From an archaeon (lineage in GTDB: Archaea > Iainarchaeota > Iainarchaeia > Iainarchaeales > JAAZKV01), in contig JBAZKP010000001.1 in NCBI GenBank assembly GCA_041650735.1, positions 163,076 through 227,075 on the forward strand: 64,000 nucleotides of DNA, given 5' to 3'. Each line of letters starts with the position of its first letter. The stretch's first letter is position 1. Under the pieces are notes generated by a model that saw only the letters and a program-made list of their open reading frames with translations, searched no databases and had not been told where the DNA came from. This document shows, piece by piece, positions 1,306 through 41,434 of the stretch. The translations under genes were made by a program, and so were the position numbers.

Positions 1306-1348
1306 GAATAAGATTAAGCGTAAGTGATATTAAAGCCTTTTGAAGGAA

Positions 1349-2155: not shown

Positions 2156-2265
2156 TTAACCCACCAAATACTACTTTATGCTGGTTAAAAAAGTTTAAAA
2201 AAACACGTAATAAGCAAAAAACAGGGGAAAAACGCAAAAACAATGAAAAAAATAAAAAAAATCCA

Positions 2266-3528: not shown

Positions 3529-3555
3529 TCAAATAAAGAGACAGGAAAAAGAAAC

Positions 3556-4209
3556 TTATTCGCTTTCTCTATATTTTTTATAAAGTTCTCTTCCGAACAA
3601 AGGAAGCCAACCAGCTATCGCACCTAAAACAAAAAGCAAAAACATGCTTTTCCTTAATTCAGGCCAGTAGTTAACAGGAATCATTTGCTGAACAGTCTGA
3701 GCCTGATTTGCCTGTGCCTGATTAATAAACTCCTGATTAATCTTTGAAACAGTCTGATTACATGACTGTGAATCAGTTTCAGAAATACAAAAATACAATG
3801 AATACTTCGCCCCATTCCTTGAATTCAGGACAGCTATTTCCCCAACATAAAAAGACAAATTAATGTAATACCCTACAAACAGAACTATTAAAATCAAAAC
3901 AAAAAACCATATTCCTGCAGCCTCTTTTGTCTCAAAAAAAGAATTCCACCACTGAATTAAAACAAAAGCCAGAATAAAACCAGCAATAGGAGCAAGGAAA
4001 TACATTACTGAATTCCAGACATCATAAGGCAAAAGCAACCCAATAACAGGAATATTCCTCAAGCCCTGCAAAGCAGAAGGCGCCAAGCAACTAGTACCCT
4101 TAACAGGGTTCAAACAAGCGCCCCCAATGAACCACATTATTAAATAAGAAAAAACAAGCCAAGCCACAACAAGAAGCAGGAATTGTTTTCCATTAAATTT
4201 ATGCGACAA
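3556..4209 (-). CDS. Hypothetical membrane protein
   Basis: 217-aa ORF with about five hydrophobic helices and a Q/N-rich loop. No family recognised. Confidence 0.45.
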   Translation of the reverse strand: MSHKFNGKQFLLLVVAWLVFSYLIMWFIGGACLNPVKGTSCLAPSALQGLRNIPVIGLLLPYDVWNSVMYFLAPIAGFILAFVLIQWWNSFFETKEAAGIWFFVLILIVLFVGYYINLSFYVGEIAVLNSRNGAKYSLYFCISETDSQSCNQTVSKINQEFINQAQANQAQTVQQMIPVNYWPELRKSMFLLFVLGAIAGWLPLFGRELYKKYRESE

Positions 4210-4264
4210 AAAAACACCTTCAACTTAAATATAATCACTAACCAATGATGAGTTTTTAACCTTT

Positions 4265-5260
4265 ATGACGCCCTCTTATTTTAGAAGTGCTTTTATGACA
4301 GAAATGGAACTCCCTTGGGTAGAAAAATACAGACCGCATGGACTGAAAGAAGTTGTTGGTCATGATGAAATAACCCATCGATTAAAAAGTTACGTGGAAA
4401 AAAGAAATATGCCGAACATGCTTTTCGCCGGACCCGCAGGAACAGGAAAAACAAGCTCAAGCATTGCACTTGCACGCGAATTATTCGGTGCAAACTTTGA
4501 ACAAAATTTTCTTGAACTAAACGCATCCGATGACCGAGGAATAGATGTTGTCAGAAATACAATAAAAGATTTCGCACGAACACTAGCATTTGACTCAGGA
4601 TTCAAAATAATTTTTCTTGACGAATGCGATGCCCTGACAACAGATGCCCAGCAAGCGCTAAGAAGAACAATGGAAAAATACACAAAAACATGCCGATTTA
4701 TTTTATCATGCAACTATTCTTCAAAAATACTTGAACCAATCCAAAGCAGATGCGTTGTATACAGATTCAAACCCTTGGGCGCAAAAGATATTGATAAACA
4801 AATTAACCACATAGCAGAAAAAGAAAAACTCCAAGTAGATGAAAAAGCAAAAATTGCCATAAATTATGTTTCACAAGGAGATTTAAGAAAAGCAACAAAT
4901 GTTTTACAAGCAGCTGCCTCCCTTGACAAAAAAATTACTGAAGAAATTGTTTACAACGTATCAAGCAGGGCAAGGCCTGAACAAGTACAAGAAATGATTA
5001 TTCTAGCATTAAAAGGAAAATTCCTTGAAGCAAGAAAAAAACTTGAAGAACTAATGTACGAACAAGGAATGAGCGGAGAAGATATTGTAATGCAGGTATA
5101 CAGGGAAACAATGAACCTTGATGAAAAAGAAATATCTGAAAAACAAAAAATTGAATTAGTTGATACTATAGGAGAATACGATTTTAGAATAGTTGAAGGG
5201 GCAAACGAAAGAATACAATTAGAAGCTTTGTTAGCACAGTTTATGAAATACAAAAAGTGA
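4265..5260 (+). CDS. rfcS: Replication factor C small subunit
   Basis: PWVEKYRP box, Walker [10 protein letters not shown], Walker B FLDECD, sensor SRC. The true start may be the ATG at 4295 (MTEMELPW). Confidence 0.9.
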
Positions 5261-12182: not shown

Positions 12183-13871
12183 ATGCCTACTGATTATTTG
12201 GAAGACATCATTGGCCAAGCAAAGGCAAGCACCCAAAAAGAAGAACAAGCGCCTATTGAAGAGCCGGTAAAAGCAAAACCTGAGGACAAGGAAGAACAAT
12301 TAGCGCAGGAAGTAAAACAAAAAGACATGCAGGAATTCAAGCAAACAATGATGGAAGAAACAGAACCAACTCCTGAAGAAAAAACAGCTATTGAAAAAGA
12401 GCTTGATGAAACCAGAAAAATAGAAATAGATGCATACGGGAAAGTAAAAATCTATAAACTCCCTAACAAGCCATTAGCATACTATTTTTTGCCAGCAACA
12501 AGACCAACAGCAGCAGAAAGAAAAGTAATTAACACACTAAAAGAAGCAACTACAAGACTCATCAGCATTGCTCCTTACAAAATAAGGGATCCTGAGGAAA
12601 GAAGAATTATTTACAAGCAAAAAATAATTGAAATAATAAAAAGCAATCCAACATTAAGAATTCCTGAAAGCAGAACCCTATTTTATGCTGATGCTGTTGT
12701 AAGAGAAATGGTAGGCTACGGATTAATAGATGATTTAATCAAAGATGACCAGTTAGAAGAAATAATGATTGTGGGACCAAAAAAACCTGTTTATGTTTTC
12801 CACAGAAAACACGAAATGATGACAACAAACATAGAATTTTTTTCAGAACAAGAAATAGAAGACCTAATAAATAAAATCGCGAGAGAAGTAGGGCGAAGAG
12901 TGGATGTTTCATCCCCTCTGCTTGATGCCAGATTACTTGATGGGTCACGTGTAAACGCAACCATTCCCCCAGCATCAATCTCAGGAGGAACACTAACAAT
13001 AAGAAAATTCAGGGCAGACCCTTACTCACTAATTGATTTAATCAAAATGGGAACATTGAGCAGTGAAGCGGCAGCATTCCTCTGGATGGCAATTGATGGA
13101 TTAGGAACAAAACCAGCGAACATACTAATATCAGGTGGAACAGGTTCAGGAAAAACAACTTTGCTTAACGTGCTTGCTGCATTCGTTCCAGACAGGGAAA
13201 GAATAATAACAATTGAAGACACAGCTGAATTAAACCTGCCAATAAAGCATTGGATAAGATTAGAATCAAGGCCGCCAGGGATAGAAGGAACAGGAGAACT
13301 CAAAATGGATATACTCACAAAAAATTCCTTAAGAATGAGGCCTGACAGAATAATTGTAGGGGAAATAAGGCATGAAGAAGCATTCACTTTATTCACAGCG
13401 ATGAACACAGGGCATGATGGAACGCTAGGAACAGTACACGCAAACAGCCCTGATGAAACACTAATCAGGTTAACAAGCCCCCCAATGAATGTCCCAAACA
13501 TAATGATGTCGGGACTAGATATGATAATCGTAGAACACAGATACTATGACAGAAAAAAAGGAACTATGAGAAGAGTAAGCGAAATCGCAGAAGTTTACGG
13601 AGCACTAGAAGGTCATCCAAAAACACAAACAATATTCCAACGAGACCCAACACGCGACACCTTAGACAAAACACTTGTTGACAGCAAATACCTCAAAGTA
13701 CTACAAAGCTTCACAGGAACAACAAAAGACAAAATTATGTCAGAAATGAATTCAAGAAAAGAATTTTTAGATTCTTTGGTAAACCAAAATATAAGAACAC
13801 TTGGTGAAGTATCAGAAAGAGCAAAAAGATTTGTGCTTGAAAAAAAGAATATTGGTGAAATAAATGGCTGA
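12183..13871 (+). CDS. Type IV pilus/secretion ATPase, FlaI/CpaF/VirB11 family
   Basis: Walker A GGTGSGKTT, IITIEDTAEL, RMRPDRIIVGEIR, His box TGHDGTLGTVHA. The ~190-aa N-terminal extension is E/K-rich. Confidence 0.9.
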   Translation: MPTDYLEDIIGQAKASTQKEEQAPIEEPVKAKPEDKEEQLAQEVKQKDMQEFKQTMMEETEPTPEEKTAIEKELDETRKIEIDAYGKVKIYKLPNKPLAYYFLPATRPTAAERKVINTLKEATTRLISIAPYKIRDPEERRIIYKQKIIEIIKSNPTLRIPESRTLFYADAVVREMVGYGLIDDLIKDDQLEEIMIVGPKKPVYVFHRKHEMMTTNIEFFSEQEIEDLINKIAREVGRRVDVSSPLLDARLLDGSRVNATIPPASISGGTLTIRKFRADPYSLIDLIKMGTLSSEAAAFLWMAIDGLGTKPANILISGGTGSGKTTLLNVLAAFVPDRERIITIEDTAELNLPIKHWIRLESRPPGIEGTGELKMDILTKNSLRMRPDRIIVGEIRHEEAFTLFTAMNTGHDGTLGTVHANSPDETLIRLTSPPMNVPNIMMSGLDMIIVEHRYYDRKKGTMRRVSEIAEVYGALEGHPKTQTIFQRDPTRDTLDKTLVDSKYLKVLQSFTGTTKDKIMSEMNSRKEFLDSLVNQNIRTLGEVSERAKRFVLEKKNIGEING

Positions 13872-14976
13872 ACCGGGAACAAGCATCGACCAGGACGAAG
13901 TTGATAAAATAGTTGAAACAATGAAACGCAAGTACCGTGAAGAAGGAATGCAGTTTGATGAAGTATCAGGCTCACTAAAAGAACTCAGGGGGATAATTGC
14001 AGAAGACACTTACTCAAGAACAGATATAGAAAACAAAGAAGACCTAGAAGATTTTGATTCAAAAATAGCCCAGCAAGTAGGAAATGTATACCTACACATG
14101 AAAGGGATACTAAAGCCAATTCAGATGACTCTAAAAAAAATCCCTTTCAGCGATGAAATCGGCTATTACTTGTACTCAGCAAACATGCCTTATTCAGCAA
14201 ACCAATATTTAGCTTTAACAAGCGCAGCAGGACTAATAGGCGCTTTAGTTGCACTAATCGCAGGACTATTCCTGGGCGCAATGATTGCAGCAACAACAAA
14301 AAATATTTTCTTTGCAACAATAATGCCATTCGCATCAGCAATAGTAATAGGGCTTATTACTCTAATAATAGTTCTTAATATCCCAAAACAAAAAGCAATC
14401 GCACGTGGTAATGCCTGCTCAGTTGAACTCCCTTTCGCATTAAGGCACATGGCTACAGAACTAAGGGCAGGAATAGGATTATACAAAACAATACAAGCAG
14501 TAACAGCAACAAACTATGGAGTATTAAGCGAAGAATTTGCAAGAACAATATCAGAAATAGAAGAAGGCACGGATACAAGCGTTGCATTAAAACACATGGC
14601 TGTAAGAACACAAAGCAAACCACTGAGAACAGCGCTCGGCCACATAATAAGAGCAATGAGAATAGGAGGAAACCTTTCAGCAATAATGAGTGAAATAGCA
14701 AAAGAAGTATCAGATGATTTAAAAAACAAAATAATTTCTTTCTCCCAACAAATGAACTTCTTTGCAGTAATATTTATTTTCTTAGGAATAGTAATGCCAG
14801 TAGCAATAATGATTCTTGGCGCAATAAGAAACTCCCCTATAGCCGCAACAGGTCAAGACCTTTTCAAAGCAGTCCCACTCACCCCACAAGTACTTTTAAT
14901 TTTTTATTTGATTCTCATGCCAATAGTTTTTATATTTATGAATGCGATGGTTTACATGGCCCAACCAAAGATGTGA
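13864..14976 (+). CDS. Pilus platform membrane protein, T2SS-F/TadB-TadC/FlaJ-like (first of two)
   Basis: T2SSF-type cytoplasmic helix block ELPFALRHMATELRAGIGLYKTIQ flanked by TM helices. Overlaps the ATPase gene by 8 nt. Confidence 0.8.
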   Translation: MAEPGTSIDQDEVDKIVETMKRKYREEGMQFDEVSGSLKELRGIIAEDTYSRTDIENKEDLEDFDSKIAQQVGNVYLHMKGILKPIQMTLKKIPFSDEIGYYLYSANMPYSANQYLALTSAAGLIGALVALIAGLFLGAMIAATTKNIFFATIMPFASAIVIGLITLIIVLNIPKQKAIARGNACSVELPFALRHMATELRAGIGLYKTIQAVTATNYGVLSEEFARTISEIEEGTDTSVALKHMAVRTQSKPLRTALGHIIRAMRIGGNLSAIMSEIAKEVSDDLKNKIISFSQQMNFFAVIFIFLGIVMPVAIMILGAIRNSPIAATGQDLFKAVPLTPQVLLIFYLILMPIVFIFMNAMVYMAQPKM

Positions 14977-14980
14977 TTTG

Positions 14981-15895
14981 ATGGAACAAACAATACTTGA
15001 AAAATATGCAGAATGGATGGAGTTCGGAAAAATTAAGTACCCCCCAATTACGTGGATAGGCATAGCAATAGGGGCAACAGTATTAGTAGGAATAATTAGT
15101 TTTGTATTAAGTTCATTAATTATAAAAGAATTAACACTAATACCAATAGCATTCAGCATCGCAACCCTAGTACTAATAATAGGGTACCCTTACATGAAAA
15201 AAGAAACCATTATTGATGGAATAGAAAAAAATTTCAGTGACGCATTAAAACAAATGGCAGATACACTAAAAGCAGGAGACACATATGAAAGTGCGTTAAG
15301 AGAAGTTGTTGATTCTGATTACGGCAGGCTTTCAGAAGAAATGCAATTAGCGCTCCGCAGGTTGGAAGACGGCGAAAACCTTGACACTGCATTAACAGGA
15401 TTTGCAAAAAGAATTGATTCAAGATTAATCAGGAGAACAATAACAATAATATTGGATTCCATAAAAACAGGGGCAAGCTTGGCAGAAATCCTTGACGAAA
15501 TAGCTGAAGATGTCCGCGATTTGCAAAGATTAAAGGAAGACAGAAAATCCAACACAACAATGCAATTTATGTTCATGATTGCTTCAGGAGGATTTATTGC
15601 CCCCTTAATCTTTGGAGAAATAAATGCTGTTGTTGCAGCATTCTCAAACATGGGCGGCCAGGTAACAACCGCAGCACAAATGGCAGCAGCACAAGAAACA
15701 AACAATTTCATAATAATGCTAATCCAAATGTATATCATAATAGAGGTAATTGGCTCAGGGGCAATGATGTCATTAATACGGGAAGGAAAACTCAACAAAA
15801 GCATTATATATATCCCAATTCTCTTATTGTTAGCGTTCATAATGTATTACACCTCTTCAATTGTTGTTAAAGGAATGATATCGGGATCAGTATGA
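14981..15895 (+). CDS. Pilus platform membrane protein, T2SS-F/TadC/FlaJ-like (second of two)
   Basis: FSDALKQMADTLKAGDTYESAL and ITIILDSIKTGASLAEIL T2SSF-like blocks plus TM helices. Start moved from 14942 to the ATG lying 4 nt after the upstream stop. Confidence 0.8.
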   Translation: MEQTILEKYAEWMEFGKIKYPPITWIGIAIGATVLVGIISFVLSSLIIKELTLIPIAFSIATLVLIIGYPYMKKETIIDGIEKNFSDALKQMADTLKAGDTYESALREVVDSDYGRLSEEMQLALRRLEDGENLDTALTGFAKRIDSRLIRRTITIILDSIKTGASLAEILDEIAEDVRDLQRLKEDRKSNTTMQFMFMIASGGFIAPLIFGEINAVVAAFSNMGGQVTTAAQMAAAQETNNFIIMLIQMYIIIEVIGSGAMMSLIREGKLNKSIIYIPILLLLAFIMYYTSSIVVKGMISGSV

Positions 15896-16041
15896 TGGAA
15901 GAAAAAGCACAAGTAAATATAGAATACTTGCTGATAATTGCAGGGGCGGTAGCTGTCGTCACAGTCGTTTCACTTTATGTAAAAACCAGTGCAAATACCG
16001 CAGCACAAACCGCACAACAACAAATCGAACAAAACCCTTAA
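15895..16041 (+). CDS. Short pilin with class III signal peptide (48 aa)
   Basis: Below the ORF-track cutoff; translated by hand as MEEKAQVNIEYLLIIAGAVAVVTVVSLYVKTSANTAAQTAQQQIEQNP. Its ATG overlaps the platform gene stop (ATGA). Q-x-x-x-E-Y-L-L motif followed by a hydrophobic helix. Confidence 0.75.
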   Translation: MEEKAQVNIEYLLIIAGAVAVVTVVSLYVKTSANTAAQTAQQQIEQNP

Positions 16042-16127
16042 AGCAATTTAAAAAAGCCAAAGGTAGGTTTAAAAACCTAAAAAACATTATAATAAATTAG
16101 TTTTATAATTCAAAAGGAGGATTCTCA

Positions 16128-16307
16128 ATGGAACAAAAAGCACAAGGAGCAATAGAATATTTATTGATAATAGGAGCAGCAATCCTAGTAGTAGCAATAG
16201 TAATTGTGGCAATGACCGGAATAGTAGGCACTGGACAACAGACAGGAACATCAGCTACAGGAGACTATAATTCACAACTTGGAGATTTGAACAGCCTAAA
16301 ACAATAA
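16128..16307 (+). CDS. Short pilin with class III signal peptide (59 aa), candidate major pilin
   Basis: Hand translation: MEQKAQGAIEYLLIIGAAILVVAIVIVAMTGIVGTGQQTGTSATGDYNSQLGDLNSLKQ. AGGAGG at 16115-16120 sits 7 nt upstream of the ATG. A hairpin plus T-run terminator lies downstream. Confidence 0.8.
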   Translation: MEQKAQGAIEYLLIIGAAILVVAIVIVAMTGIVGTGQQTGTSATGDYNSQLGDLNSLKQ

Positions 16308-16340
16308 ATCTACGAATGTGAATAATGAATTCATTTAAAA

Positions 16341-16377
16341 AGAAAAGGCTCAATGCCTTTTCTTTTCTATTTTTTTT
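16341..16377 (+). terminator. Hairpin plus oligo-T terminator after pilin gene
   Basis: AGAAAAGGC-ucaau-GCCUUUUCU is a perfect 9-bp stem (16341-16363), followed by a T-rich run to 16377. Confidence 0.6.
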
Positions 16378-16428
16378 GAACAAAATAATTAGGTTTAAAT
16401 ACTTCTTTTCCCTAATATGAATGGTTTT

Positions 16429-16746
16429 ATGGAACGCGGACAAGGCTCAATAGAATATTTATTACTCTTAGCAGCAGCAGTTGTTGTTGTGGGAGTTGTA
16501 GTAGCATTCATAATAAGCACAATAGGACCAGTGCAAGATACAGGGAGCCAACAAACCTATGATTATACCTGCAAAACTTTAGACACAAATAGTTTCCTAT
16601 GCGGATGCTATGAATGCAATCTAAACAAAGGCGGTTACTCCCCTGAATTAAAAATAACCAAAATGGCAAACAAAACGGATTGCGATGCTTTATCAGTTTA
16701 TAAAAATGATTCCTTGCTTCTAGGAAGCAAATGCTCTGGCTGGTAA
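16429..16746 (+). CDS. Pilin with class III signal peptide and Cys-rich C-terminal domain
   Basis: MERGQGSIEYLLLLAAAVVVVGVVVAF leader and helix, then a ~70-aa domain with 7 Cys (CKTLDTNSFLCGCYECN...CDAL...KCSGW). The ORF track starts at 16417; the ATG at 16429 parallels the other pilins. Confidence 0.75.
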   Translation: MERGQGSIEYLLLLAAAVVVVGVVVAFIISTIGPVQDTGSQQTYDYTCKTLDTNSFLCGCYECNLNKGGYSPELKITKMANKTDCDALSVYKNDSLLLGSKCSGW

Positions 16747-16758
16747 AAAGTGTGTTTT

Positions 16759-16932
16759 ATGGAAGAAAAAGCACAAGTATCCTTTGAGTACCTACTTACA
16801 GCAGTATTCGCAATAATGCTCGCGATAAGCGCAGCAATAATAGTTGAAACCTTGAAATCATTAGCCCTACAAGCACAAGCAGACATACTCTCCACAAGAG
16901 CAAGAGTAATAGAAAACATCATGACAAACTAA
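16759..16932 (+). CDS. Short pilin with class III signal peptide (57 aa)
   Basis: MEEKAQVSFEYLLTAVFAIMLAISAAIIV. The first 21 nt are identical to the pilin gene at 15895. The ORF track starts at the GTG at 16750. Confidence 0.7.
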   Translation: MEEKAQVSFEYLLTAVFAIMLAISAAIIVETLKSLALQAQADILSTRARVIENIMTN

Positions 16933-17013
16933 CAAACAAGAGTAACCTGCAAACAAACAATCCTTTTTGCTCTACAATAAAACTTTATAAACAATAAACC
17001 CCTAATTCTAGAA

Positions 17014-18126
17014 ATGCTTACCATTATATTTTACTCATCAATAATAATCTCAATACTTGGATTATTAGCTGCTACATATACTGATTTGAAAGAAAGAATC
17101 GTTCCGAATAAATTAAATTACGGCCTGGCAATAACAGGACTTGTGATATTCGCACTACAATCATATTTCGAAGCAAGTTACTTTCCTTTGCTGTATTCAG
17201 TATGCGGATTATCCTTTGGATTTTTATTCGGCTGGGTAATGTGGAAACTAGGCGTATTTGCAGGAGGAGATGTGAAATTATTTATGGGATTAGGCGCCCT
17301 AAACCCTTTTACTCCAGCACTACTAAAAATAGGGGCTTTTTCAACAGCGAATATTCCTTTATTTCCAATTACATTATTTATTTACTCCTTAATTTCTTTC
17401 CTCCCATACGGCTTATTTGTAATAACATGCAGAGTAAGCAAAAATAAAAAGTTTCAAAAAGAATTATATAAAGAAATGAAACCAAAAATCCTCACAGCAA
17501 TACATGCTTCAATATTCGCTTCCGCAGCATACACTCTTATCACATTCTTTAACCTCAACGCTTTGCTCGTGATAATAATTCTGCTAATATGGGGAATAAT
17601 CGGAGAAAAAAAGAAATTCATCACAATAATTTCAGTAATCTGGGCCTTAATCACAAACCCGGTTTTGCTAACCCAAGCACTCATAGCAGCAATGATATTT
17701 AGTGTAGGATTATATACAATAATTAAACTGCTTTTATCTGCAAGAAAAATTTTGTCAACAGAAATTAATGTGAAAGACCTGGAAGAAGGAATGATTCCTG
17801 CAAAAAGCATTATAAAGAAAGGAAAAAAATTGGAAGAAGTGAACCCATTTGATTTTAAGCAAATAGTAAAATATGCAAAGGAAAAAAACTTTAAAGCAAT
17901 TAAAGAAATGATTATGCCAAAAAAAGAAATAATTTCTTCAAGAAAAGCACGCGGGCTCACGATTGAAGAATTAAAAGAAGTGAAAAAGCTCGCAGCAAAA
18001 GGGCTTATTCCCAAAAAAATTTTTATAAAAGAAAGCATGCCTTTTGTTCCAACAATGCTCTTAGGATATTTGCTCTGCCTAATCCTAGGAGATTATGCAT
18101 TAATGATTTTTTTTGGGGCGATATAA
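17014..18126 (+). CDS. Prepilin/preflagellin peptidase, A24 family (PibD/EppA-like) with long C-terminal extension
   Basis: First catalytic Asp context YTDLKERIVPNKLN, second FAGGDVKLFMGLGA. An additional TM block and a ~110-aa Lys-rich soluble segment precede a final TM helix. Confidence 0.8.
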   Translation: MLTIIFYSSIIISILGLLAATYTDLKERIVPNKLNYGLAITGLVIFALQSYFEASYFPLLYSVCGLSFGFLFGWVMWKLGVFAGGDVKLFMGLGALNPFTPALLKIGAFSTANIPLFPITLFIYSLISFLPYGLFVITCRVSKNKKFQKELYKEMKPKILTAIHASIFASAAYTLITFFNLNALLVIIILLIWGIIGEKKKFITIISVIWALITNPVLLTQALIAAMIFSVGLYTIIKLLLSARKILSTEINVKDLEEGMIPAKSIIKKGKKLEEVNPFDFKQIVKYAKEKNFKAIKEMIMPKKEIISSRKARGLTIEELKEVKKLAAKGLIPKKIFIKESMPFVPTMLLGYLLCLILGDYALMIFFGAI

Positions 18127-18576
18127 ATGAAAAGAGGACAGGCAGCGCTTGAATTCATTTTCCTCATACTTGTTGTGGTTGTTTATATTGTAACAGTTAC
18201 AATGCCCTTAAGCAGAGATACGCAAAGTGCTTTAAGTGATGTGGAAACACTTTCAAGAGCAAACAATGAAACACAAAAAATAATGAATTCAATAAATGAG
18301 CTTTCCATTATTGGAGAAGGATCAAAACAAACCTTAACACTATTCATTCCGGAAAATACATTCATTTATTGTACAGACACAAATATTTCATATGAAGTAA
18401 AATTAAAACAAACACCTTACCCAATACAATGCTCTTCAGGAACCTGTAGGAAAACATTTTTGGTCCCAAGTACAATAACACTTAACTGCAGCTTACAATT
18501 AATAACAGGACCAACAAAAATGAACCTTGTACTTGAAAAAAGTGCGGCAAAAATTGCTTTCACGCAAGGAAGCTGA
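18127..18576 (+). CDS. Pilin-like protein with class III signal peptide (minor pilin candidate)
   Basis: MKRGQAALEFIFLILVVVVYIV N-terminus. Starts 1 nt after the peptidase stop. Confidence 0.65.
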   Translation: MKRGQAALEFIFLILVVVVYIVTVTMPLSRDTQSALSDVETLSRANNETQKIMNSINELSIIGEGSKQTLTLFIPENTFIYCTDTNISYEVKLKQTPYPIQCSSGTCRKTFLVPSTITLNCSLQLITGPTKMNLVLEKSAAKIAFTQGS

Positions 18577-18580
18577 TTAA

Positions 18581-18895
18581 ATGAAAGGACAAATAGCATT
18601 AGAAAGCCTGATTCTAATTCTCGTTGTATTAACAGCAACCATATTAATAACAGGACTCTACATGCAGACACATGATAATACAATGGCAATAAGCATTACA
18701 CGAGAAGAAATACTAAGCCAAATAAGTACTAAGAAAGAAAACATAGTGATTGATTACATTAAAATAGAAAATAATCTCTCAAGCACAGATATAATAATAA
18801 AAACAACTCCTCTGACTTCATTTAACACCGAACAAATAAAACAAAAAATTGCTTCAATGACAAAATACCAAAACCCAAACATAATACTAAAATGA
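18581..18895 (+). CDS. Pilin-like protein with class III signal peptide (minor pilin candidate)
   Basis: MKGQIALESLILILVVLTATILI N-terminus. 4-nt spacer from the upstream gene. Confidence 0.65.
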   Translation: MKGQIALESLILILVVLTATILITGLYMQTHDNTMAISITREEILSQISTKKENIVIDYIKIENNLSSTDIIIKTTPLTSFNTEQIKQKIASMTKYQNPNIILK

Positions 18896-18988
18896 ATACA
18901 AAATCAAGCCATTTCTCCAGAAACACTCATTTCGACACTTAACGAAAAAAAACTTATTCTTTTATTCCTGCCAAAAACTCCTTTCCTA

Positions 18989-19351
18989 ATGAATGATAAA
19001 ACACTTTCAAAAATATGCCTCACAATAACTCTTACAGGAATGCTTTTTCTTGCTTTAACTTATAAACCGGAATTTGAAGAAACAACAGTTTCAAACTTAA
19101 TACAAAAAGAAAATTCCAAAGGAATAATTTTTGGAAAAATTGAATCAATAATAAAAACAGGGCAAACAACAATATTCATCCTAAATGATTCAAATAAAGT
19201 ACTAATTTATTACCCAAAAACAATTGAAATTGAAGAAAATGATTTTGTAAAAGTATATGCGGAAAACAATTCAAAAGAAATTACTGAGGAAAAATATTCT
19301 TCAAAAAAGAAAGAACTAATGCTCTTTGCTTACAAAGTGATAAAAGAATGA
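18989..19351 (+). CDS. Membrane-anchored small protein, possible OB-fold domain
   Basis: N-terminal TM helix (ICLTITLTGMLFLAL) followed by a beta-rich ~80-aa domain. Its stop overlaps the next start (ATGA at 19348-19351). The fold assignment is a guess. Confidence 0.4.
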   Translation: MNDKTLSKICLTITLTGMLFLALTYKPEFEETTVSNLIQKENSKGIIFGKIESIIKTGQTTIFILNDSNKVLIYYPKTIEIEENDFVKVYAENNSKEITEEKYSSKKKELMLFAYKVIKE

Positions 19352-20511
19352 TTCTGCTCTGGTGCCTGCTAGGAGCAGGAATAGGGCTCATTGCAGGTCT
19401 TATTCCTGGATTACATTCAAACAATATAGCTGTTATTTTGGCAGCAACCCCTTTTTTTGGGAAAGAAATAACCGCATTCATGCTAAGCCTCTGCATAACA
19501 CAAGCATTTACTGAATTCATCCCAGCAGTATTTATCGGCGCTCCGGGAGAAAATACTTTTGAAAGTATTCTTCCCGCGCACAGAATGCTAATGCAAGGAA
19601 AAGCGTTTGAAGCAATCTGCCTGACAACAACTGGAGCCCTCACAGCAGTAATCGCAGGCTCACTCCTCACCCCCCTATTTTTTATGTTCATAGAACAAAA
19701 TTCCCAACAAATAATTGCAATAACGCCAATAGTGCTAATTGCCGCACTAATAATGTTTATTGCGGGAGAACAAACAATAAAGAAAAAACTTGTTGTGATA
19801 TTTGTAATAATTGCAGCAGCAAGCCAGGGAATATTATTCAAAGAACAAGTATTCCCTTTAATTACAGGCTACTTTGGGATAGCAGGAACACTTTATTCAT
19901 TAAAAGAAAAACCGTTTAATGCAAAACAAAACACTAATGCTGAAATAAATCCAAAAATAATCCTGGATTCATTAATAGGAATAACTGGCGGAGCGATAGT
20001 ATCCATAATGCCGGGAATAGGCAGCAATACTGCTGCAGGAATAATTAACCTCTTTAGAAAAACAAAAAGCACTGAAAAATACCTGGCCATGCTAGGCGCA
20101 ATAAATGCATCAAATTTCTTTTTCTCCTACGCAACAATGTTAGCACTGGATAAAGCAAGAAATGGGACCATGCTGGCACTACAAGAGAAAATATTTCACA
20201 CAACGGATACACTTTTTTTAGGCACAATAATAATGGTAACTTCTGCAGGAATAGGTGGCTTAGCAGCAATAATTCTTGCAAAAAAAGCGATTATCCTTTT
20301 TGAAGAAAAAGTCACGCAAAAAATGTCAATAGCAACAATAATCCTCATGATAATACTAGTAGGTTTTTTCAATGGAATAACCGGGCTTACAGCAATGGTA
20401 TTTGCAACATCACTAGGCTTATTTACAATAATATCTGGAATAAGAAGAAGCACCTGTATGTCCTCTCTTATAGTACCAGTACTGTTTTTCTATGTTTTTA
20501 CACTAATTTAA
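19348..20511 (+). CDS. TctA-like (DUF112/COG1784-type) polytopic membrane protein
   Basis: Two copies of the G-x-hydrophobic-PG-hydrophobic-(G/H)-S-N signature (GLIPGLHSNN and SIMPGIGSNTAAG) in a ~10-TM protein. Confidence 0.45.
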   Translation: MILLWCLLGAGIGLIAGLIPGLHSNNIAVILAATPFFGKEITAFMLSLCITQAFTEFIPAVFIGAPGENTFESILPAHRMLMQGKAFEAICLTTTGALTAVIAGSLLTPLFFMFIEQNSQQIIAITPIVLIAALIMFIAGEQTIKKKLVVIFVIIAAASQGILFKEQVFPLITGYFGIAGTLYSLKEKPFNAKQNTNAEINPKIILDSLIGITGGAIVSIMPGIGSNTAAGIINLFRKTKSTEKYLAMLGAINASNFFFSYATMLALDKARNGTMLALQEKIFHTTDTLFLGTIIMVTSAGIGGLAAIILAKKAIILFEEKVTQKMSIATIILMIILVGFFNGITGLTAMVFATSLGLFTIISGIRRSTCMSSLIVPVLFFYVFTLI

Positions 20512-20513
20512 TT

Positions 20514-20882
20514 ATGTGGGCAATAAAAAAAAGTGTTCTGCTTAACGCATGCTCTTCAGCAATAAATTTTATTCCTGACGAATTCATGTGCTTTCTAGGA
20601 GGTAATAAAAAAACAAAAATAATAGATGAAATCATTTTTATGCCAACCGAAAATTCAGAGCACTCTGTAAGCGTTAATGAACTCAACATACCATTTGATG
20701 ACACAATTCTAGGAAGCCTGCACTCCCACCCGTTTAGCTCAAACAAGCCAAGCAAGGAAGACAAAAGGTTCTTTAGAAAATATTCTGTTAATGTTATACT
20801 TGGTTACCCCTATTCAATAGAAACCACTGGATTTTACGATGAAAAAGGGGGAGAAATAAAAATAATATTAATAGAAGGATAA
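20514..20882 (+). CDS. JAB/MPN (JAMM) metalloprotease domain protein
   Basis: JAMM motif GSLHSHPFSSNKPSKED (H-x-H-x7-S-x2-D) with an upstream Glu (PTENSEH). 122 aa. Starts 2 nt after the upstream stop. Confidence 0.7.
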   Translation: MWAIKKSVLLNACSSAINFIPDEFMCFLGGNKKTKIIDEIIFMPTENSEHSVSVNELNIPFDDTILGSLHSHPFSSNKPSKEDKRFFRKYSVNVILGYPYSIETTGFYDEKGGEIKIILIEG

Positions 20883-20920
20883 AAACACAAAATTAAAAGG
20901 GCTAAATACATAATCTTATT

Positions 20921-21358
20921 ATGCAAAAAGCGCAAATAAGTTTAGACCTTTTACTTACCCTAATAATAGCAATAATAATAATTTCTTCTTTTAACGGGCT
21001 AACAGAAAACTTCAGGATTGACAAAGAAAAAATGCTTGTAGAGCAACAATTAAATGACATTACCCTAAAAACGGCTTCAGTTATAACTTCAACACAGTCA
21101 CTTGCAGATACAAACTTTTACATTGAACTGGCAATAAACAAAATACAATACGTGGATGAAAAAGGAAACACCCACAACATTTACCCTGATATTGTTTACA
21201 TGCCTGATGATAAAAAATTAGCCCTTTCAACAGTAATATCAACAAAATACGGGTCAATTGACATTAATTCATTCGCATATATTTCAAAAACAAGCAACAC
21301 TGATATTAACACCATTCCAATAAGGACAAAAGGATTCATGGTGATAAAAAATGTATAA
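20921..21358 (+). CDS. Pilin-like protein with class III signal peptide (minor pilin candidate)
   Basis: MQKAQISLDLLLTLIIAIIIISS N-terminus. Confidence 0.6.
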   Translation: MQKAQISLDLLLTLIIAIIIISSFNGLTENFRIDKEKMLVEQQLNDITLKTASVITSTQSLADTNFYIELAINKIQYVDEKGNTHNIYPDIVYMPDDKKLALSTVISTKYGSIDINSFAYISKTSNTDINTIPIRTKGFMVIKNV

Positions 21359-21863
21359 AGGCCAAATATTCTCGACAGATTTACTGTTTGCAATGGTAAT
21401 AATGATTCTCTGCCTTGGAACCATAGTCAGCGCATATGAATTTAATCTTTACAATCAAAAACAACATGACATCCAAAAAGATTTAAAAGAAAAAACAGAA
21501 ACAGCAATAATAATCCTTACAAACTCAGTAGCAAACTGCCAAATAAATGATTTTAATGGACGCACAATGTCATTGGCTTACTCAATAAATACGAACAAAC
21601 TTACAACCCTTGCAGCAAATCCCAAAGCACTAAAAGAAGCTCTCGCGATTCAAGATTTAAACCTGCAAATAAAATTATCAACCAGCGGGATAATCATTAA
21701 TGAAGAAATTAATGCACAAAATATTGTGGGAATAGACCTAAGCATAATGACATGCAATTCAAGCGCAACAATGAGTGACTTAAATGAATGCATAAATTCA
21801 TCAAGCCCGTGCAATAATCCAAACATAAAAATGCAGACACTTAGCCTGAAGGTGGAAAAATGA
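21351..21863 (+). CDS. Pilin-like protein with class III signal peptide (minor pilin candidate)
   Basis: MYKGQIFSTDLLFAMVIMILCLG N-terminus. 8-nt overlap with the upstream gene. Confidence 0.6.
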   Translation: MYKGQIFSTDLLFAMVIMILCLGTIVSAYEFNLYNQKQHDIQKDLKEKTETAIIILTNSVANCQINDFNGRTMSLAYSINTNKLTTLAANPKALKEALAIQDLNLQIKLSTSGIIINEEINAQNIVGIDLSIMTCNSSATMSDLNECINSSSPCNNPNIKMQTLSLKVEK

Positions 21864-22138
21864 AAGGATTCATGTTCTCAATAGAATCCTTTATGGCTGT
21901 TTCGGTGGTTATTCTAGCAACAACCATGCTATGGTACTCAAGCACATTAATCCAACAAGAAACAAATAATATTCAAATACAACAACAAAGCGAAGAAATG
22001 TGCACCATTTATTTTAATCTCCCCCAGCAACAATCAAACCCAAACAATTACACTCAATACTGCGGGAAAGTAATTTCTTACGAATCAGCAACAAAGCAAT
22101 TTTATGACAAAGATATTTGTATAGGAGTGGTAAAATGA
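21860..22138 (+). CDS. Pilin-like small protein (minor pilin candidate)
   Basis: MKGFMFSIESFMAVSVVILATT N-terminus. ATGA overlap with the upstream gene. Confidence 0.5.
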   Translation: MKGFMFSIESFMAVSVVILATTMLWYSSTLIQQETNNIQIQQQSEEMCTIYFNLPQQQSNPNNYTQYCGKVISYESATKQFYDKDICIGVVK

Positions 22139-22539
22139 AAACAAAAGGTTTTGCTGGAGCAATACTCATGCTTGCAATACTCTTGTCAGTTGCACTCCTC
22201 TTAAACGCAAATAACGAAACACGAAACGCTCCCTCCTACAAAGAAATTCTGCCCGAAGCAAAAATTGTGCTAAATAATTATGAATTAGCACTCAAACAAG
22301 CTGTGCGGGATTGTGATTGGGAATTAAGTAAAGATGAAATACGTGCATGCATTGACAGTAGCGCCACTGCCTTATTATTAAAAAGCAATTCCTTAAATAT
22401 GTTCAAATGCTCAAAAACCAATGCGACAAACCACTCAATGAAAAAATTTTATATTGACCTGAACTGTTCCGAAATAGTCGAGAAAAACTGGAAAACAAGC
22501 ATAAAACTTGATGTCAACAAAAGAATCTACATAGGCTAA
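22135..22539 (+). CDS. Pilin-like protein (minor pilin candidate)
   Basis: MKTKGFAGAILMLAILLSVALLL N-terminus. ATGA overlap at 22135-22138 and GGAG upstream. The ORF track starts earlier, at 22117. Confidence 0.5.
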   Translation: MKTKGFAGAILMLAILLSVALLLNANNETRNAPSYKEILPEAKIVLNNYELALKQAVRDCDWELSKDEIRACIDSSATALLLKSNSLNMFKCSKTNATNHSMKKFYIDLNCSEIVEKNWKTSIKLDVNKRIYIG

Positions 22540-28577: not shown

Positions 28578-29375
28578 TCAATTAATGTAAAAAGAAAAAA
28601 GACTGTTAATAAAATAACTGGGAAGCATGGAAAAGGAATAAAACGGCAAACCATACATTACTGTTTCAAGCTTGCTTTTCAAAGTCGGCTTAGCATTAAC
28701 CTTAAAGGCAAATTCCTTTGAGGTATCCTCAAAAGCAATACTTACAACAAACTCTTTTTCCCCTTGAAGGCGAGGATAAACAGAAATCTTTTCCTGAAGA
28801 TTACCTCTCCTAGGCACAACAACCTGCTTCGAATATTTTTCATTATTCAAAGGATTCTTATTCATCCAATTATTAGGTAAATTTGTAGAAACAACAAAAA
28901 CTGCGTCAGAATCAGATTTATTTATAAAAAACAAATTATATTCTGCAATAGAATTAACATTAGTTGAAGCTTCTGAAATATCTGCAGGAGAAACATCCAA
29001 AGCATTCTTCAAAACCTCAAAAGACAAAGGAACCTTGTCACTCTTTACAGGCCCAGAAAGCTCTACTGTAAAAGGATAATTACCTACAGGCGCATTCTCT
29101 GGAACATAAATAAACATCTTAAGGGACTCCATTTCAACTTTAACCTCATAATCAAATCCTGTTGAAAGAGAAGTTACAAGCTGAAGATTCTCATATTTAT
29201 CAACAAGTTCTTTTGAAAAAATTAGTTCAATTGTATTGCCAACCGCAACAGTCCCAACAAAATTAGTTTCATCAAGCGACAACGTCTTGGACAACGGATC
29301 AATAAGCCTTACAGCAAAAACACTGCCTGAAAAAAGGAGAATCAAAACCAATAAAAGGAATGACTTTTTAAACAT
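28578..29375 (-). CDS. Secreted/surface protein, hypothetical
   Basis: Signal peptide MFKKSFLLLVLILLFSGSVFA, beta-rich body and hydrophobic C-terminus. No family recognised. Confidence 0.5.
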   Translation of the reverse strand: MFKKSFLLLVLILLFSGSVFAVRLIDPLSKTLSLDETNFVGTVAVGNTIELIFSKELVDKYENLQLVTSLSTGFDYEVKVEMESLKMFIYVPENAPVGNYPFTVELSGPVKSDKVPLSFEVLKNALDVSPADISEASTNVNSIAEYNLFFINKSDSDAVFVVSTNLPNNWMNKNPLNNEKYSKQVVVPRRGNLQEKISVYPRLQGEKEFVVSIAFEDTSKEFAFKVNAKPTLKSKLETVMYGLPFYSFSMLPSYFINSLFSFYIN

Positions 29376-30610: not shown

Positions 30611-32140
30611 TTACTGAAGTTCTGAGATTGTGGAAAGAACTTTTTCAGGATTATAGTAATAACTTTCAATTACTTCAAGTACTTCTAATGGTTTTCTTAT
30701 GTTCTCGCGGAGCATCCATTCAAGAATGAGTTTTCTTACCTCAATCTCTTTCTTTAAATCATTTTTCGTAAGCGAACTATGCTGAGCCATTTCCTCTAAC
30801 ACACGGCTCTGTATTTCTGTGCGCTTCAAAATATCATTAGCATCATCAAAATCAAACAAGATTCCTGACAAAACCTTATCATCCATCCTAGATAATTCAA
30901 CAATCTGCAATACACGACGCTGCATCCCTTTCTCCTTTGAATAATGTCTCTGCATTATAACAATAAAATCAAGCAAAGGGAGCATTGATTGGGGAACAGA
31001 AAGAGGGCGCTCTTGAAGTTTAACCAAAGTTTCTCGGGCATTATTAGCATGAATAGTGCCAAGACACCCTTGGTGACCAGTATCCATTGCAGTAAAAAAA
31101 GTCAAAGCCTCAGCGCCCTGTACTTCCCCAACAATAATCCTGTCAGGCCTCATCCGCATAGAATTTTTTAACAAAGAATGCATTGTTACTTCAGCACCTG
31201 AAGAAGTTCTGGCTTCAAGCGCAACCCAATTCTCTCTCCCAAGCAAAGATAATTCAATAGTATCCTCAATAGAAACGACTCTTTCATTCAGCCTTATAAA
31301 ATTTGAAAGAATATTCAAGAAAGTAGTTTTACCAGAAGCAGTTCCCCCCGCAACAAGAATATTCTTTGGATAAATACCAAGCCCATCAACCATGAGCCAA
31401 AGAAAAGCAGCTGCCTCCGAAGTAATTGTCTTGCTCTCAATCAAATCAAGAATTGTTAATGGAATTGAAGAAAATTTTCTTATAGTAAGAGTCATTCCTG
31501 TAGGAGAGACATCCGGCAAAGTAGCATTAACTCTGGAACCGTCAGGAAGACGAGCATCAAGCAAAGCATTAGTTGAATCAAACTTACGGTTAATAGTCAA
31601 AGCAATTCTCTGAATAATATCAACAAGTGCCTTTTGCTGAACAGCCACGTTAGTTTTACACATACCATACTTTTTGTGAAAAACAAAAATATTTTCAGGA
31701 CCATTAATCATTAATTCTTCCAAATCATCATCAAGGGAAAAAAAAGATAATTGCTTAAGCCCAATAGAGTTATACAAAACATATTCTGAAAAAAGAATTT
31801 TATTTGAAACAAATTTTACTTTTGAAACCAATTTAACCATTGATTCAAGCAAAGAAACAAATAACTGTTTTGAAGGAAGCTTTTCAACAAGACTATTAAC
31901 CTGAACAACGGAAACAATGCTATCAACAAACAAATCATTAAAATCCGGTGCAGTACCATCAAATTCTTTCCTTAAAATACCTCCCTTATGAATAGCCTTA
32001 ACCAAAAAATCCGCAAAAGCCTTTTCCTTATCAGACAAACTAATAGGCTTGACATCATAAAAATTAGTGGACAAACCCTGATGAATATCAGCTAAAAAAC
32101 TTGAATCAATCTTCTTCATTTTTACTTCACTGAACTTCAT
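30611..32140 (-). CDS. Second FlaI/CpaF/VirB11-family secretion ATPase (orphan paralog)
   Basis: Walker A GGTASGKTT, VVSIEDTIEL, RMRPDRIIVGEVQ, TGHQGCLGTIHA. Clearly paralogous to 12183..13871, but no platform or pilin gene is adjacent. Confidence 0.85.
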   Translation of the reverse strand: MKFSEVKMKKIDSSFLADIHQGLSTNFYDVKPISLSDKEKAFADFLVKAIHKGGILRKEFDGTAPDFNDLFVDSIVSVVQVNSLVEKLPSKQLFVSLLESMVKLVSKVKFVSNKILFSEYVLYNSIGLKQLSFFSLDDDLEELMINGPENIFVFHKKYGMCKTNVAVQQKALVDIIQRIALTINRKFDSTNALLDARLPDGSRVNATLPDVSPTGMTLTIRKFSSIPLTILDLIESKTITSEAAAFLWLMVDGLGIYPKNILVAGGTASGKTTFLNILSNFIRLNERVVSIEDTIELSLLGRENWVALEARTSSGAEVTMHSLLKNSMRMRPDRIIVGEVQGAEALTFFTAMDTGHQGCLGTIHANNARETLVKLQERPLSVPQSMLPLLDFIVIMQRHYSKEKGMQRRVLQIVELSRMDDKVLSGILFDFDDANDILKRTEIQSRVLEEMAQHSSLTKNDLKKEIEVRKLILEWMLRENIRKPLEVLEVIESYYYNPEKVLSTISELQ

Positions 32141-35887: not shown

Positions 35888-35933
35888 AACACCAAAATTA
35901 CTTCATAAAAAACTATTTACTTGCATTACAAAG

Positions 35934-36022
35934 CGGGCCTGGAGGGAATCGAACCCCCATCCCGAGATATCTTCTTTTTTAAAGCCGAAGTCTCGTCGCT
36001 TGATCCATTGGCACACAGGCCC
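35934..36022 (-). tRNA. tRNA-Arg(UCG) with 16-nt intron at canonical 37/38 position
   Basis: Hand fold: acceptor GGGCCUG/CAGGCCC, D arm UGCC-AAUGGAUCA-AGCG, anticodon stem CGAGA/UCUCG, loop CUUCGG[intron]A, T arm GGGGG-UUCGAUU-CCCUC, discriminator G. Intron is 35969-35984. BHB: 4-bp helix CUUC/GAAG flanked by the 3-nt bulges GGC and AUA. No encoded CCA. Confidence 0.8.
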
Positions 36023-38700: not shown

Positions 38701-38744
38701 ACCTATTAGTCTGTAGAAAAAGCAATTAAAATAAAAAATCAGAA

Positions 38745-38951: not shown

Positions 38952-38965
38952 AAAACCACCAATAA

Positions 38966-39172: not shown

Positions 39173-39281
39173 CAAACCCACCAGAATACATAACTCTCGT
39201 AAAGCAACCTTTAAAAAAGTAGGGTTTAGGCTTGCAAAACACATGCAAAGTATTTTAAGAATAAAAGCCCGAATCCTAATC

Positions 39282-39746: not shown

Positions 39747-39749
39747 GGT

Positions 39750-41366: not shown

Positions 41367-41434
41367 GACAAAAAAGGATTTTCAGGGACTTATAAAGGAT
41401 TTGGAGGTTCCATGCCGGTGGTTAGGAAAACAAT

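Follow-up and report, generated by a model that had tools for sequence, protein, structure and literature searches.

Archaeal type IV systems of the group named Epd-like (Denise 2019), clade 1 (Makarova 2016) or TFF 'system 1' (2026 preprint) are defined by a CpaF-like secretion ATPase (arCOG01819), which is distinct from FlaI and from the PilB of clades 2 and 4. Such systems have already been recorded in methanogens, Thermococcales and some DPANN archaea, and the group was identified as the archaeal source of bacterial Tad (Denise 2019). Their major-type pilins are ~50-70 amino acids (aa) long and carry an EppA-type signal (DUF361 / PF04021). FleN/MinD, DUF2341 PilY-like and transglutaminase-like accessories are often present, although not strictly defining, and surface transglutaminase-like peptidases have been linked to clade 1 pili (Makarova et al. 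2016). Here we present a gene cluster that almost certainly belongs to this group, located at positions 12183-22539 of a 64,000-nucleotide (nt) stretch of DNA from contig JBAZKP010000001.1 of assembly GCA_041650735.1 (the window, meaning the whole stretch analysed). Its source is an archaeon of the Iainarchaeota, a phylum of the DPANN group, now kingdom Nanobdellati. The pilus genes of the cluster enclose a gene pair for a probable OB-fold protein and a TctA-like membrane protein.

Both protein types are known from natural transformation in Methanococcus maripaludis. A transposon screen of strain JJ for transformation-defective mutants found most of them in Epd genes (Fonseca et al. 2023, PMC10133366), and epdA/C/F/H/I/J/K/L and eppA are essential for transformation. 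Two adjacent genes, MMJJ_13020 (single transmembrane (TM) segment, OB-fold) and MMJJ_13030 (11 TM segments, TctA-like), are each essential as well; in-frame deletion of either abolished transformation, and both deletions were complemented (PMC10133366). In Methanoculleus thermophilus, too, transformation depends on a TctA-like homologue. M. maripaludis has three separate loci for these modules, namely the core machinery, the pilin/peptidase cluster and the OB/TctA pair. Archaea are reported to be without identifiable ComEC homologues, and the TctA-like protein was proposed as the missing archaeal DNA transporter (PMC10133366). For the archaeal route of DNA import, this protein together with its OB-fold partner is the sole candidate so far, coming from the Methanococcus transposon screen.

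The locus in the window is comprised of 17 genes, all on the plus strand and tightly packed within 10.4 kb, with six overlapping junctions and a widest intergenic gap of 109 nt. We read it as an Epd-like pilus with an embedded OB/TctA module, which would act as an apparatus for DNA uptake and adhesion; the probability we give to this reading is about 0.5. The DNA-uptake role draws on Methanococcus genetics and on the gene neighbourhood. The Epd-like identity is, in contrast, close to certain, because the locus encodes a CpaF-like ATPase, a split platform, a long peptidase, short pilins with Gln at +1, and minor pilins. An earlier note on this DNA had named it a Tad/Epd-like type IV pilus locus, which is upheld by the gene content and by the published definitions of Epd-like, clade 1 and system 1 systems (PMC4858521, PMC6668835, bioRxiv 10.64898/2026.04.22.720090). 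The profiles it had proposed for searching (T2SSE, T2SSF, Peptidase_A24 and PF04021) were all matched, T2SSF twice. All open reading frames (ORFs) listed there are present on the plus strand at the coordinates given, but the genes number 17 and not 14 as was implied, and three non-pilin genes within the same coordinates had been missed (18989-20882; OB-fold, TctA-like and JAB). The pilus locus itself is of a known type and has already been annotated piecemeal in public records; what sets it apart is its conserved merger with the OB/TctA pair. We found no paper in the literature describing this co-localisation, and TctA or OB-fold partners are unmentioned in the 2016 census and in the 2026 survey of archaeal type IV systems.

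The product of the first middle gene (18989-19351, +) has 120 aa, a single TM helix at its N-terminus and a probable OB fold, the latter as suggested by transitive profile evidence. Among its 13 positional orthologues, three of the more distant ones match PF01336 (best E = 5.8e-8). In hhalign comparisons, the close and the distant orthologue groups are linked at 90.6% probability, and the distant group is linked to bacterial TctA-adjacent OB proteins at 96%. The charge distribution around the TM helix of the archaeal protein suggests an N-in/C-out topology, and two of the bacterial partners, on Anaerolineae-like contigs, carry lipoprotein signal peptides. Because of these two features, the OB domain is probably outward-facing and extracytoplasmic. 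TATA-like boxes are found ~23-30 nt upstream of pilin 2, pilin 3 and the peptidase gene, whereas the 93-nt spacer 5' of the OB gene has no such box and no T-run. This is compatible with read-through transcription from the preceding unit, formed by the peptidase gene and the minor-pilin genes L1 and L2.

The stop codon of the OB gene overlaps the start of the second middle gene in an ATGA (19348-19351) that was absent from the earlier note. This gene (19348-20511, +) encodes a 387-aa TctA-like polytopic membrane protein with ~10-11 TM segments, matching PF01970 over its full length (E = 8.2e-30, 104 bits). Full-length homologues at 25-30% identity exist in the methanogens Methanocorpusculum and Methanobrevibacter. 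No match to TctB or TctC was obtained among the locus genes in the Pfam search, and the TctA-like protein is a candidate translocator of DNA or of a solute. The third gene begins 2 nt past the TctA gene (20514-20882, +) and encodes a small cytoplasmic JAMM/JAB metalloprotease of 122 aa (Prok-JAB, 29.3 bits; gathering score 25). Its motif H-x-H-x7-S-x2-D is intact in the window copy and in nine orthologues, and a JAB gene behind TctA was seen in Iainarchaeota-like loci only. A RadC-type JAB gene is competence-induced in bacteria, which serves here as a lead only; the JAB protein of the window has no RadC-family match and no signal peptide.

Within the window, the OB/TctA/JAB genes lie between two blocks of minor-pilin genes, L1-L2 and L3-L6. 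Among 13 related genome loci of sufficient length, 12 have the same placement, and so do the metagenome loci L036, L037, L043, L046 and L087, with TctA identity down to 32%. The gene order of the whole locus is kept in 23 related genome loci. In the wider metagenome scan, performed with a narrow hidden Markov model built from an alignment of six sequences, an OB gene followed by a TctA gene was present in 24 of the 67 loci with enough upstream sequence, many of them DPANN-like. One further locus, from another archaeal lineage (L034, positions 652-4319 of a 5-kb contig, GC 0.42), shows an overlap between a TctA gene, whose product is 31% identical to that of the window, and an OB-fold gene with a Pfam score above threshold. 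Directly upstream of this pair are three ORFs with pilin-like N-termini, one of which reads ...MKG↓QIFLIIA (arrows mark predicted cleavage sites), and an AP_endonuc_2 / xylose-isomerase-like TIM-barrel gene lies downstream. This arrangement hints at an independent gain of adjacency between pilus genes and OB/TctA.

Several observations weigh against a DNA-uptake role. The window copy of the OB protein has no direct Pfam match, its fold being called transitively (hhalign 90.6%), and the likeness of the OB/TctA pair to MMJJ_13020/13030 is at the level of family and architecture only. The TctA-like DNA channel is itself a hypothesis of the authors of PMC10133366, and the piliation of the OB and TctA mutants is unreported there. 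No dedicated retraction ATPase is encoded inside the locus. Most OB-TctA pairs are not beside pilus genes. Pilus genes were present in just five of the 26 metagenome loci having at least 5 kb upstream of TctA, and all five are Iainarchaeota-like. A general adjacency of TctA and pilus genes was rejected, with TctA homologues of Nanoarchaeota, Aenigmatarchaeota, Methanobrevibacter and Methanocorpusculum having unrelated neighbours, and TctA lying away from pilus genes in most other DPANN contigs as well. Furthermore, gene order is kept across the phylum over more than 20 kb (Nre, ThrRS ... ABCE1, Nudix, Pelota ... second ATPase), and the adjacency of ThrRS and the pilus ATPase gene is about as conserved as that of TctA. 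Synteny was therefore rejected as a proof of function, since unrelated flanking genes are equally syntenic, and co-localisation alone is weak evidence of functional coupling.

The same synteny of unrelated ThrRS, ABCE1 and Pelota genes favours an explanation in which the pilus serves for adhesion or host attachment only, and OB, TctA and JAB are unrelated housekeeping or transport genes kept in place by a frozen gene order. In addition, M. maripaludis attaches to surfaces by means of its Epd pilus, DPANN archaea, whose genomes have been reported to encode type IV pili, are often cell-associated, and TctA homologues of other lineages lie away from pilus genes. Against this, the OB/TctA pair is wedged amid the minor-pilin blocks and read in the same direction; its junctions overlap or span 2 nt, and the spacer before it has nothing promoter-like. 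In M. maripaludis, transformation requires both of these protein types together with this type of pilus. The independent lineage represented by L034 also has pilin-like genes directly upstream of OB-TctA, and a large adhesin-like protein (DUF2341/PilY-like) is missing from the locus. On balance, we consider attachment as the sole function rather unlikely. The host-attachment organelle of a reduced episymbiont that the earlier note had put forward is plausible, although it is not the sole reading and perhaps not the best one, and adhesion to surfaces or partner cells may accompany DNA uptake.

A different role for the pair has also been considered, in which OB and TctA are an accessory of pilus assembly or a bindosome-like device for nutrient uptake instead of a DNA channel. 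In such a device, a receptor would be displayed by the pilus-like structure, the OB protein would take the place of TctC as the outward-facing partner of a secondary transporter, and the substrate could be an oligonucleotide, an oligosaccharide or an organic acid. In tripartite transporters, TctA is the permease and works with an extracytoplasmic binding protein; here TctB/TctC are missing and the constant partner is an OB protein that faces outward, bacteria included. Archaeal type IV machineries are also known to scavenge substrates, such as the Sulfolobus bindosome, and a defect of pilus biogenesis would equally explain the loss of transformation in the OB and TctA mutants of M. maripaludis, given their unreported piliation. 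Nevertheless, most OB-TctA pairs are without neighbouring pilus genes, so the pair can work, or be encoded, independently. OB folds of the PF01336 type are mostly nucleic-acid binders, and loss of DNA transformation is the only known phenotype of the pair. We regard this explanation as improbable, clearly more so than attachment alone.

Other settings of TctA homologues were observed as well. On Anaerolineae-like contigs (L031 5072-7332, L032 6470-9326 and L033 7063-9329), a PF01336 OB-fold protein is encoded directly before a TctA homologue of ~440 aa, and these OB partners are lipoproteins or proteins with a Zn-ribbon and a TM segment. OB and TctA thus appear to be a cross-domain two-gene module without TctB/TctC. 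In an Aenigmatarchaeota locus (L026 7449-11197), the TctA homologue is located directly behind SecF/SecD-like genes and no OB-fold gene is found there.

The pilus motor is encoded at the 5' end of the locus. The assembly ATPase (12183-13871, +; 562 aa; Pfam T2SSE, E = 7.6e-44) is CpaF/TadA/EpdL-like, with Walker A GGTGSGKTT at residue 318, an Asp box at 345, a Walker B-like motif at 386 and a His box at 410. Its best match by sequence in the PDB is CpaF (2.3e-75, 257 bits), followed by GspE of Archaeoglobus fulgidus (1.9e-68, 234 bits) and FlaI (1e-57, 199 bits). Two TadB/TadC-like platform proteins follow, comparable to EpdJ/K. The first (13864-14976, +; 370 aa) has one T2SSF domain (PF00482, E = 2e-19), and the start of its gene overlaps the stop codon of the ATPase gene by 8 nt (13864-13871, ATGGCTGA). 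The second (14942-15895, +; 317 aa, or 304 aa from an alternative start at 14981) also has one T2SSF domain (PF00482, E = 5e-18) and is kept in all related loci extending to its position. They are paralogues, 27% identical over 181 aa (E = 2e-16). A platform split in this way had earlier been called unusual, but it is actually a defining feature of Epd-like systems (PMC6668835, bioRxiv 10.64898/2026.04.22.720090).

The NCBIfam FlaI model aligns with the ATPase over a long stretch (E = 3.8e-84), and pilin 2 has a very weak match to Arch_flagellin (E = 0.092), both of which could suggest that the locus is an archaellum or some other non-Epd archaeal type IV system. With 283 bits, however, the ATPase falls far short of the 550-bit cut-off of the FlaI model, and CpaF is the better match in the PDB. 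The platform consists of two single-domain genes, the peptidase is of the long EppA form, and the subunits are Flp-like peptides of 43-54 aa, with no archaellin (PF01917) match above threshold. No KaiC-like or FlaF/G/H/CDE/X-like protein was detected in the locus or in its flanks. The earlier note had held that the locus would be an ordinary archaellum if FlaF, FlaG, FlaH or FlaCDE genes were found, and Pfam scans revealed none of them among the 17 locus genes or the flanking genes. The archaellum reading was rejected on gene content and has practically no probability left.

Outside the locus, the window contains a second T2SSE-family ATPase gene (30611-32140, -; 509 aa), an orphan with no platform gene alongside, whose product is 44% identical to the locus ATPase over 384 aa. 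A 509-aa T2SSE gene occupies the equivalent relative position in the contig of a relative (P0076 locus). The orphan could be a second motor of the same pilus, e.g. for retraction. Near it lies the gene of a possible surface protein (28578-29375, -; 265 aa), which has no Pfam match and combines a Sec-type signal peptide with a hydrophobic segment at the C-terminus. The pilus ATPase gene itself is interrupted in several relatives (L009 10001-12973; also L013, L015, L016 and L017). The ATPase ORF of L009 is 990 aa long and has, behind residue ~430, an insertion with Intein_splicing, LAGLIDADG and HTH domains; no intein is present in the window copy.

Four short pilin genes follow the platform genes. 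The leader M-E-x-(K/R)-(A/G)-Q-x-x-x-E-Y-L-L described for them earlier is confirmed in all four. Three of the pilins are 49-60 aa long and one has 109 aa, all with (K/R)(A/G)↓Q; the mature forms would be 43-54 residues for the three and ~101 for pilin 3. Their A/G↓Q-x-x-x-E-Y context fits both the EppA-type signal and the Flp processing motif. PF04021 (Class_IIIsignal) is matched above the gathering threshold by three of the four and by the larger protein L1, and below it by pilin 4 and L2.

Pilin 1 (15892-16041, +; MMEEKA↓QVNIEYLL..., mature ~43 aa) is Flp-like, scoring 23.9 bits against PF04021 (gathering score 23.7) and weakly against Flp_Fap (E = 0.037, 14.3 bits; gathering score 32.2). 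It has orthologues in all related loci extending that far, and its gene shares an ATGA overlap with platform gene 2. Pilin 2 (16128-16307, +; MEQKA↓QGAIEYLL..., mature ~54 aa; PF04021 25.6 bits) has TTTATA at -26 and GGAGG ahead of its start codon. Its N-terminus is near-invariant among relatives, in several of which the gene is duplicated. The strongest terminator-like site on the plus strand of the locus, a hairpin of 12 pairs with a T-run, is found 3' of this gene (16338-16377, +). Shuffling predicts no fewer hairpin-plus-T-run sites than the locus has, which makes this hairpin a hint only, and scans of the locus for bacterial-type promoters and terminators were overall at chance level. The TATA-like box, the GGAGG, the hairpin with T-run, the near-invariant N-terminus and the duplication in relatives favour pilin 2 over the other pilins as candidate major subunit.

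Pilin 3 (16417-16746, +; probable start 16429; MERG↓QGSIEYLL..., mature ~101 aa; PF04021 28.1 bits) has a Cys-rich C-terminal part with six Cys, and TTTAAA at -23. Pilin 4 (16750-16932, +; probable start 16759; MEEKA↓QVSFEYLL..., mature ~52 aa) scores just 10.3 bits against PF04021, and profile-profile comparison links it to the pilin 1 family at 97.8% probability. It is 36-88% identical to its orthologues, and 64-88% to those of closer relatives.

The prepilin peptidase gene comes next (17014-18126, +; 370 aa). The A24 peptidase reported before is borne out by Pfam, which adds both archaeal C-terminal domains (Peptidase_A24, 2.9e-15; Arc_PepC, 6.5e-10; Arc_PepC_II, 3.3e-8) and makes this a long-form, EppA-like enzyme. 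It has at least eight hydrophobic segments, with Asp24 (DLK) and Asp86 (GGDVK) as candidate catalytic residues. Although it aligns end to end with the NCBIfam EppA model, the score is 38 bits against a cut-off of 450, and judging from these profiles the protein is EppA-like by architecture, not an equivalog.

Six larger pilin-like proteins, L1-L6, each have exactly one N-terminal hydrophobic segment. L1 (18127-18576, +; 149 aa; MKRG↓QAALEF...) scores 25.8 bits against PF04021, above the gathering score, and a protein identical to it is labelled 'class III signal peptide-containing protein' by NCBI. Across 53 homologues, G4, Q5, E9, F10 and Cys102 are invariant and the cysteines are conserved; the cleavage context of L1 orthologues is KGQxxxEF. 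The AlphaFold model (pLDDT 91) predicts an N-terminal helix (residues 2-61) followed by a domain of eight beta strands, i.e. the 'lollipop' architecture of pilins, and a Foldseek search of this model against the PDB gave no match better than E = 0.04. L2 (18581-18895, +; 104 aa; MKG↓QIALES...) scores 18.1 bits, below the PF04021 threshold, and keeps (K/N)GQxxxE in 12 orthologues.

The second block begins with L3 (20921-21358, +; 145 aa; MQKA↓QISLDL...), which is linked to L1 by hhalign at 95.5% over 61 columns and keeps KGQISLD in seven orthologues. L4 (21351-21863, +; 170 aa; MYKG↓QIFSTDL...) is linked to L3 at 95% over 56 columns, and its orthologues keep KGQIFSxD. Its AlphaFold model is weak (pLDDT 68), because the alignment behind it is shallow, the protein database search having yielded five L4 homologues in all; it has the same layout as L1, with a helix (9-60) and then an alpha/beta domain, and Foldseek found nothing for it. 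L5 (21860-22138, +; 92 aa; MKG↓FMFSIES...) is linked to L4 at 92.7% over 25 N-terminal columns, has KG(F/L)xFSxE conserved, and its gene has ATGA overlaps at both ends. L6 (22135-22539, +; 134 aa; MKTKG↓FAGAIL...) is putatively pilin-like, with (K/R)GF and a hydrophobic segment in six orthologues; it has four Cys and no acidic residue at +5. Its assignment is tentative, since hhalign found no profile link to the other pilins of the locus and the acidic residue is missing. The remaining proteins are joined in a chain of hhalign probabilities: pilin 1 family to L1, 81%; pilin 1 family to L2, 88%; L1 to L2, 93%; L1 to L3, 95.5%; L3 to L4, 95%; and L4 to L5, 93%. Searches of the PDB by sequence and profile with the L1 family, pilin 2 and TctA gave nothing meaningful.

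To put these N-termini into the context of the window, both strands of the 64 kb were scanned for a simple class III motif, taking all ORFs of 45 aa or more. Of 15 matches, ten are the ten locus genes, nine of which have D/E at +5/+6. The remaining five, all antisense or internal ORFs, are without this acidic residue, and the clustering of the motif in the locus is thus not due to chance. Of the ten class III assignments made earlier, nine are now backed by profiles, while that of L6 relies on its conserved KG↓F and hydrophobic segment. The earlier note could not place the larger proteins in a named family, and no unrelated family claims them: neither Pfam nor NCBIfam assigned L3-L6 or their orthologues to a family. 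It had also named loss of the cleavage context in homologues as an argument against their pilin nature; (K/R)G↓Q or KG↓F is kept in the identified orthologues of all six, at 20-55% identity. The overlaps between genes that it had listed were verified at 13864-13871, 21351-21358 (ATGTATAA), 21860-21863 (ATGA) and 22135-22138 (ATGA). The first ATGA is equally real, with coordinates off by one, being located at 15892-15895 and not at 15893-15897.

From these components, the following course of events can be proposed for the DNA uptake and adhesion apparatus. The ten prepilins would insert into the membrane, where the EppA-like aspartic peptidase would remove leaders of 3-8 residues after (K/R)(G/A), leaving Gln or Phe at +1 and Glu or Asp at +5/+6. 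The CpaF-like ATPase, presumably hexameric, would act through the TadB/TadC-type two-protein platform to build a thin filament from at least one of the short Flp-like pilins. Minor pilins priming or tipping the filament would be L1-L2 and the series L3-L4-L5-L6, whose genes are translationally coupled; a position of L6 at the tip, as for GspK, given its lack of an acidic residue, is speculation. The filament would bind extracellular DNA, and also surfaces or cells. DNA would then be passed to the membrane-anchored, outward-facing OB-fold protein, and the TctA-like polytopic protein would carry DNA or a DNA-derived product into the cell, with the adjacent intact JAMM protease in an accessory role of some kind.

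In its most specific form, the locus would be a self-contained 'competence operon' of Iainarchaeota, combining an Epd-like pilus, an OB-fold DNA receptor, a TctA-like translocase as a functional analogue of ComEC, and a JAMM protease, for transformation and/or for scavenging DNA as a source of nucleotides in an organism whose genome is reduced. We hold this version tentatively, at less than even odds. If true, comparative genomics would contribute independent evidence for one machine, through the physical joining of modules that lie dispersed in Methanococcus. The prediction would be that this DPANN lineage takes up environmental DNA, with consequences for its nucleotide economy and for horizontal gene transfer. 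Should frozen synteny be the only link, an ordinary Epd-like pilus cluster is left. Conservation of the pilus cluster with OB/TctA across a DPANN phylum is a second and independent line, from gene neighbourhood, tying the pair to the pilus, and the 17 genes offer a compact cassette for heterologous reconstitution or structure prediction.

The window has a low GC content (0.34). The closest relatives of the locus ATPase, at 56-83% identity, come from metagenome-assembled genomes (MAGs) labelled 'Candidatus Iainarchaeum', 'ainarchaeum' or 'archaeon', and several locus proteins are 100% identical to NCBI 'MAG: archaeon' proteins. A near-identical copy of the whole locus is present on the metagenome contig Ga0247842_10000232 (L036), with most proteins at 92-99% amino-acid identity. 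The least identical are pilin 2 (79%), pilin 3 (88%) and L4 (88%), indicating that exposed subunits diverge fastest between strains.

Elsewhere in the window, a Transglut_core protein of 572 aa is encoded 31 kb from the locus (53653-55371, +). A DNA-end-processing neighbourhood (36652-44958) contains genes for Rad50 (36652-38700, +), HerA/DUF87 (41435-42967, -) and NurA (43879-44958, -), and between the Rad50 and HerA/NurA genes lies a 538-aa ORF without a Pfam match (39750-41366, -). Two tandem thymidylate kinase paralogues of 212 and 225 aa are located at 56602-57926 (-). The tRNA genes at 35933-36022 (-) and 58096-58247 (+) are long, 90 and 152 nt, consistent with archaeal tRNA introns; the latter was found by Rfam only and missed by ARAGORN.

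Compared with known systems, the locus shares with bacterial Tad/Flp the closest solved ATPase (CpaF), the gene order ATPase-platform-platform-pilin, the TadB/TadC-type split platform and pilins of ~45-55 aa with G/A↓xxxxEY. Flp pili have been cited as mediating bacterial DNA uptake (Angelov et al. 2015, cited in PMC10133366). Unlike in Tad, neither a secretin (RcpA/CpaC) nor TadZ, TadD or TadE/F/G was found among the locus genes with Pfam and NCBIfam, the peptidase has archaeal C-terminal domains, the Flp_Fap match is marginal and the host is archaeal. The locus is thus related to the ancestor of Tad and is not a member of Tad. With TctABC transporters it shares a membrane protein within Pfam TctA (PF01970) over the full length, but this protein is shorter (387 aa, ~10-11 TM segments), TctB and TctC are missing, and its constant partner is a single-TM OB-fold protein.

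The closest likeness in pilus genes is to Epd. As in M. maripaludis, the ATPase is probably of the CpaF family, two genes each encode a platform protein with a single T2SSF domain, the peptidase is of the long EppA type with Arc_PepC (the published criterion being arCOG02300, ~9 TM segments), and the major-type pilins are very short, with Gln at +1 and no globular domain. At least five class III minor pilins are shared with Epd-like systems, here L1-L5 and tentatively L6. In contrast to described Epd systems, L3-L6 match no Pfam or NCBIfam model and the cluster encloses OB-fold, TctA-like and JAB genes. With Pfam, none of the 17 locus genes was identified as encoding a DUF2341/PilY-like adhesin, a FleN/MinD ATPase or a transglutaminase-like peptidase. 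Whereas epdJKL, the epd/eppA cluster, the major pilin genes and the OB/TctA pair are separate in M. maripaludis, all counterparts in the window form one 10.4-kb cluster.

The transformation set of M. maripaludis is matched by the Epd-like pilus, the OB-fold gene and the adjoining TctA-like gene without TctB/TctC. The locus differs from it by having the modules merged in one cluster and by the intact JAMM protease behind TctA. Thermonuclease, PC4, MinD-like protein, M50 peptidase and ArtE were not found among the subset of window ORFs that was scanned against Pfam. With respect to bacterial competence, the OB receptor and the TctA-like channel are non-homologous to ComEA and ComEC. ComEC also has an outward-facing OB-fold domain. 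The proposed logic is that of the bacterial Com/type IV pilus system with ComEA and ComEC, in which a retractile or short pilus captures DNA, a membrane receptor holds it and a polytopic channel imports it.

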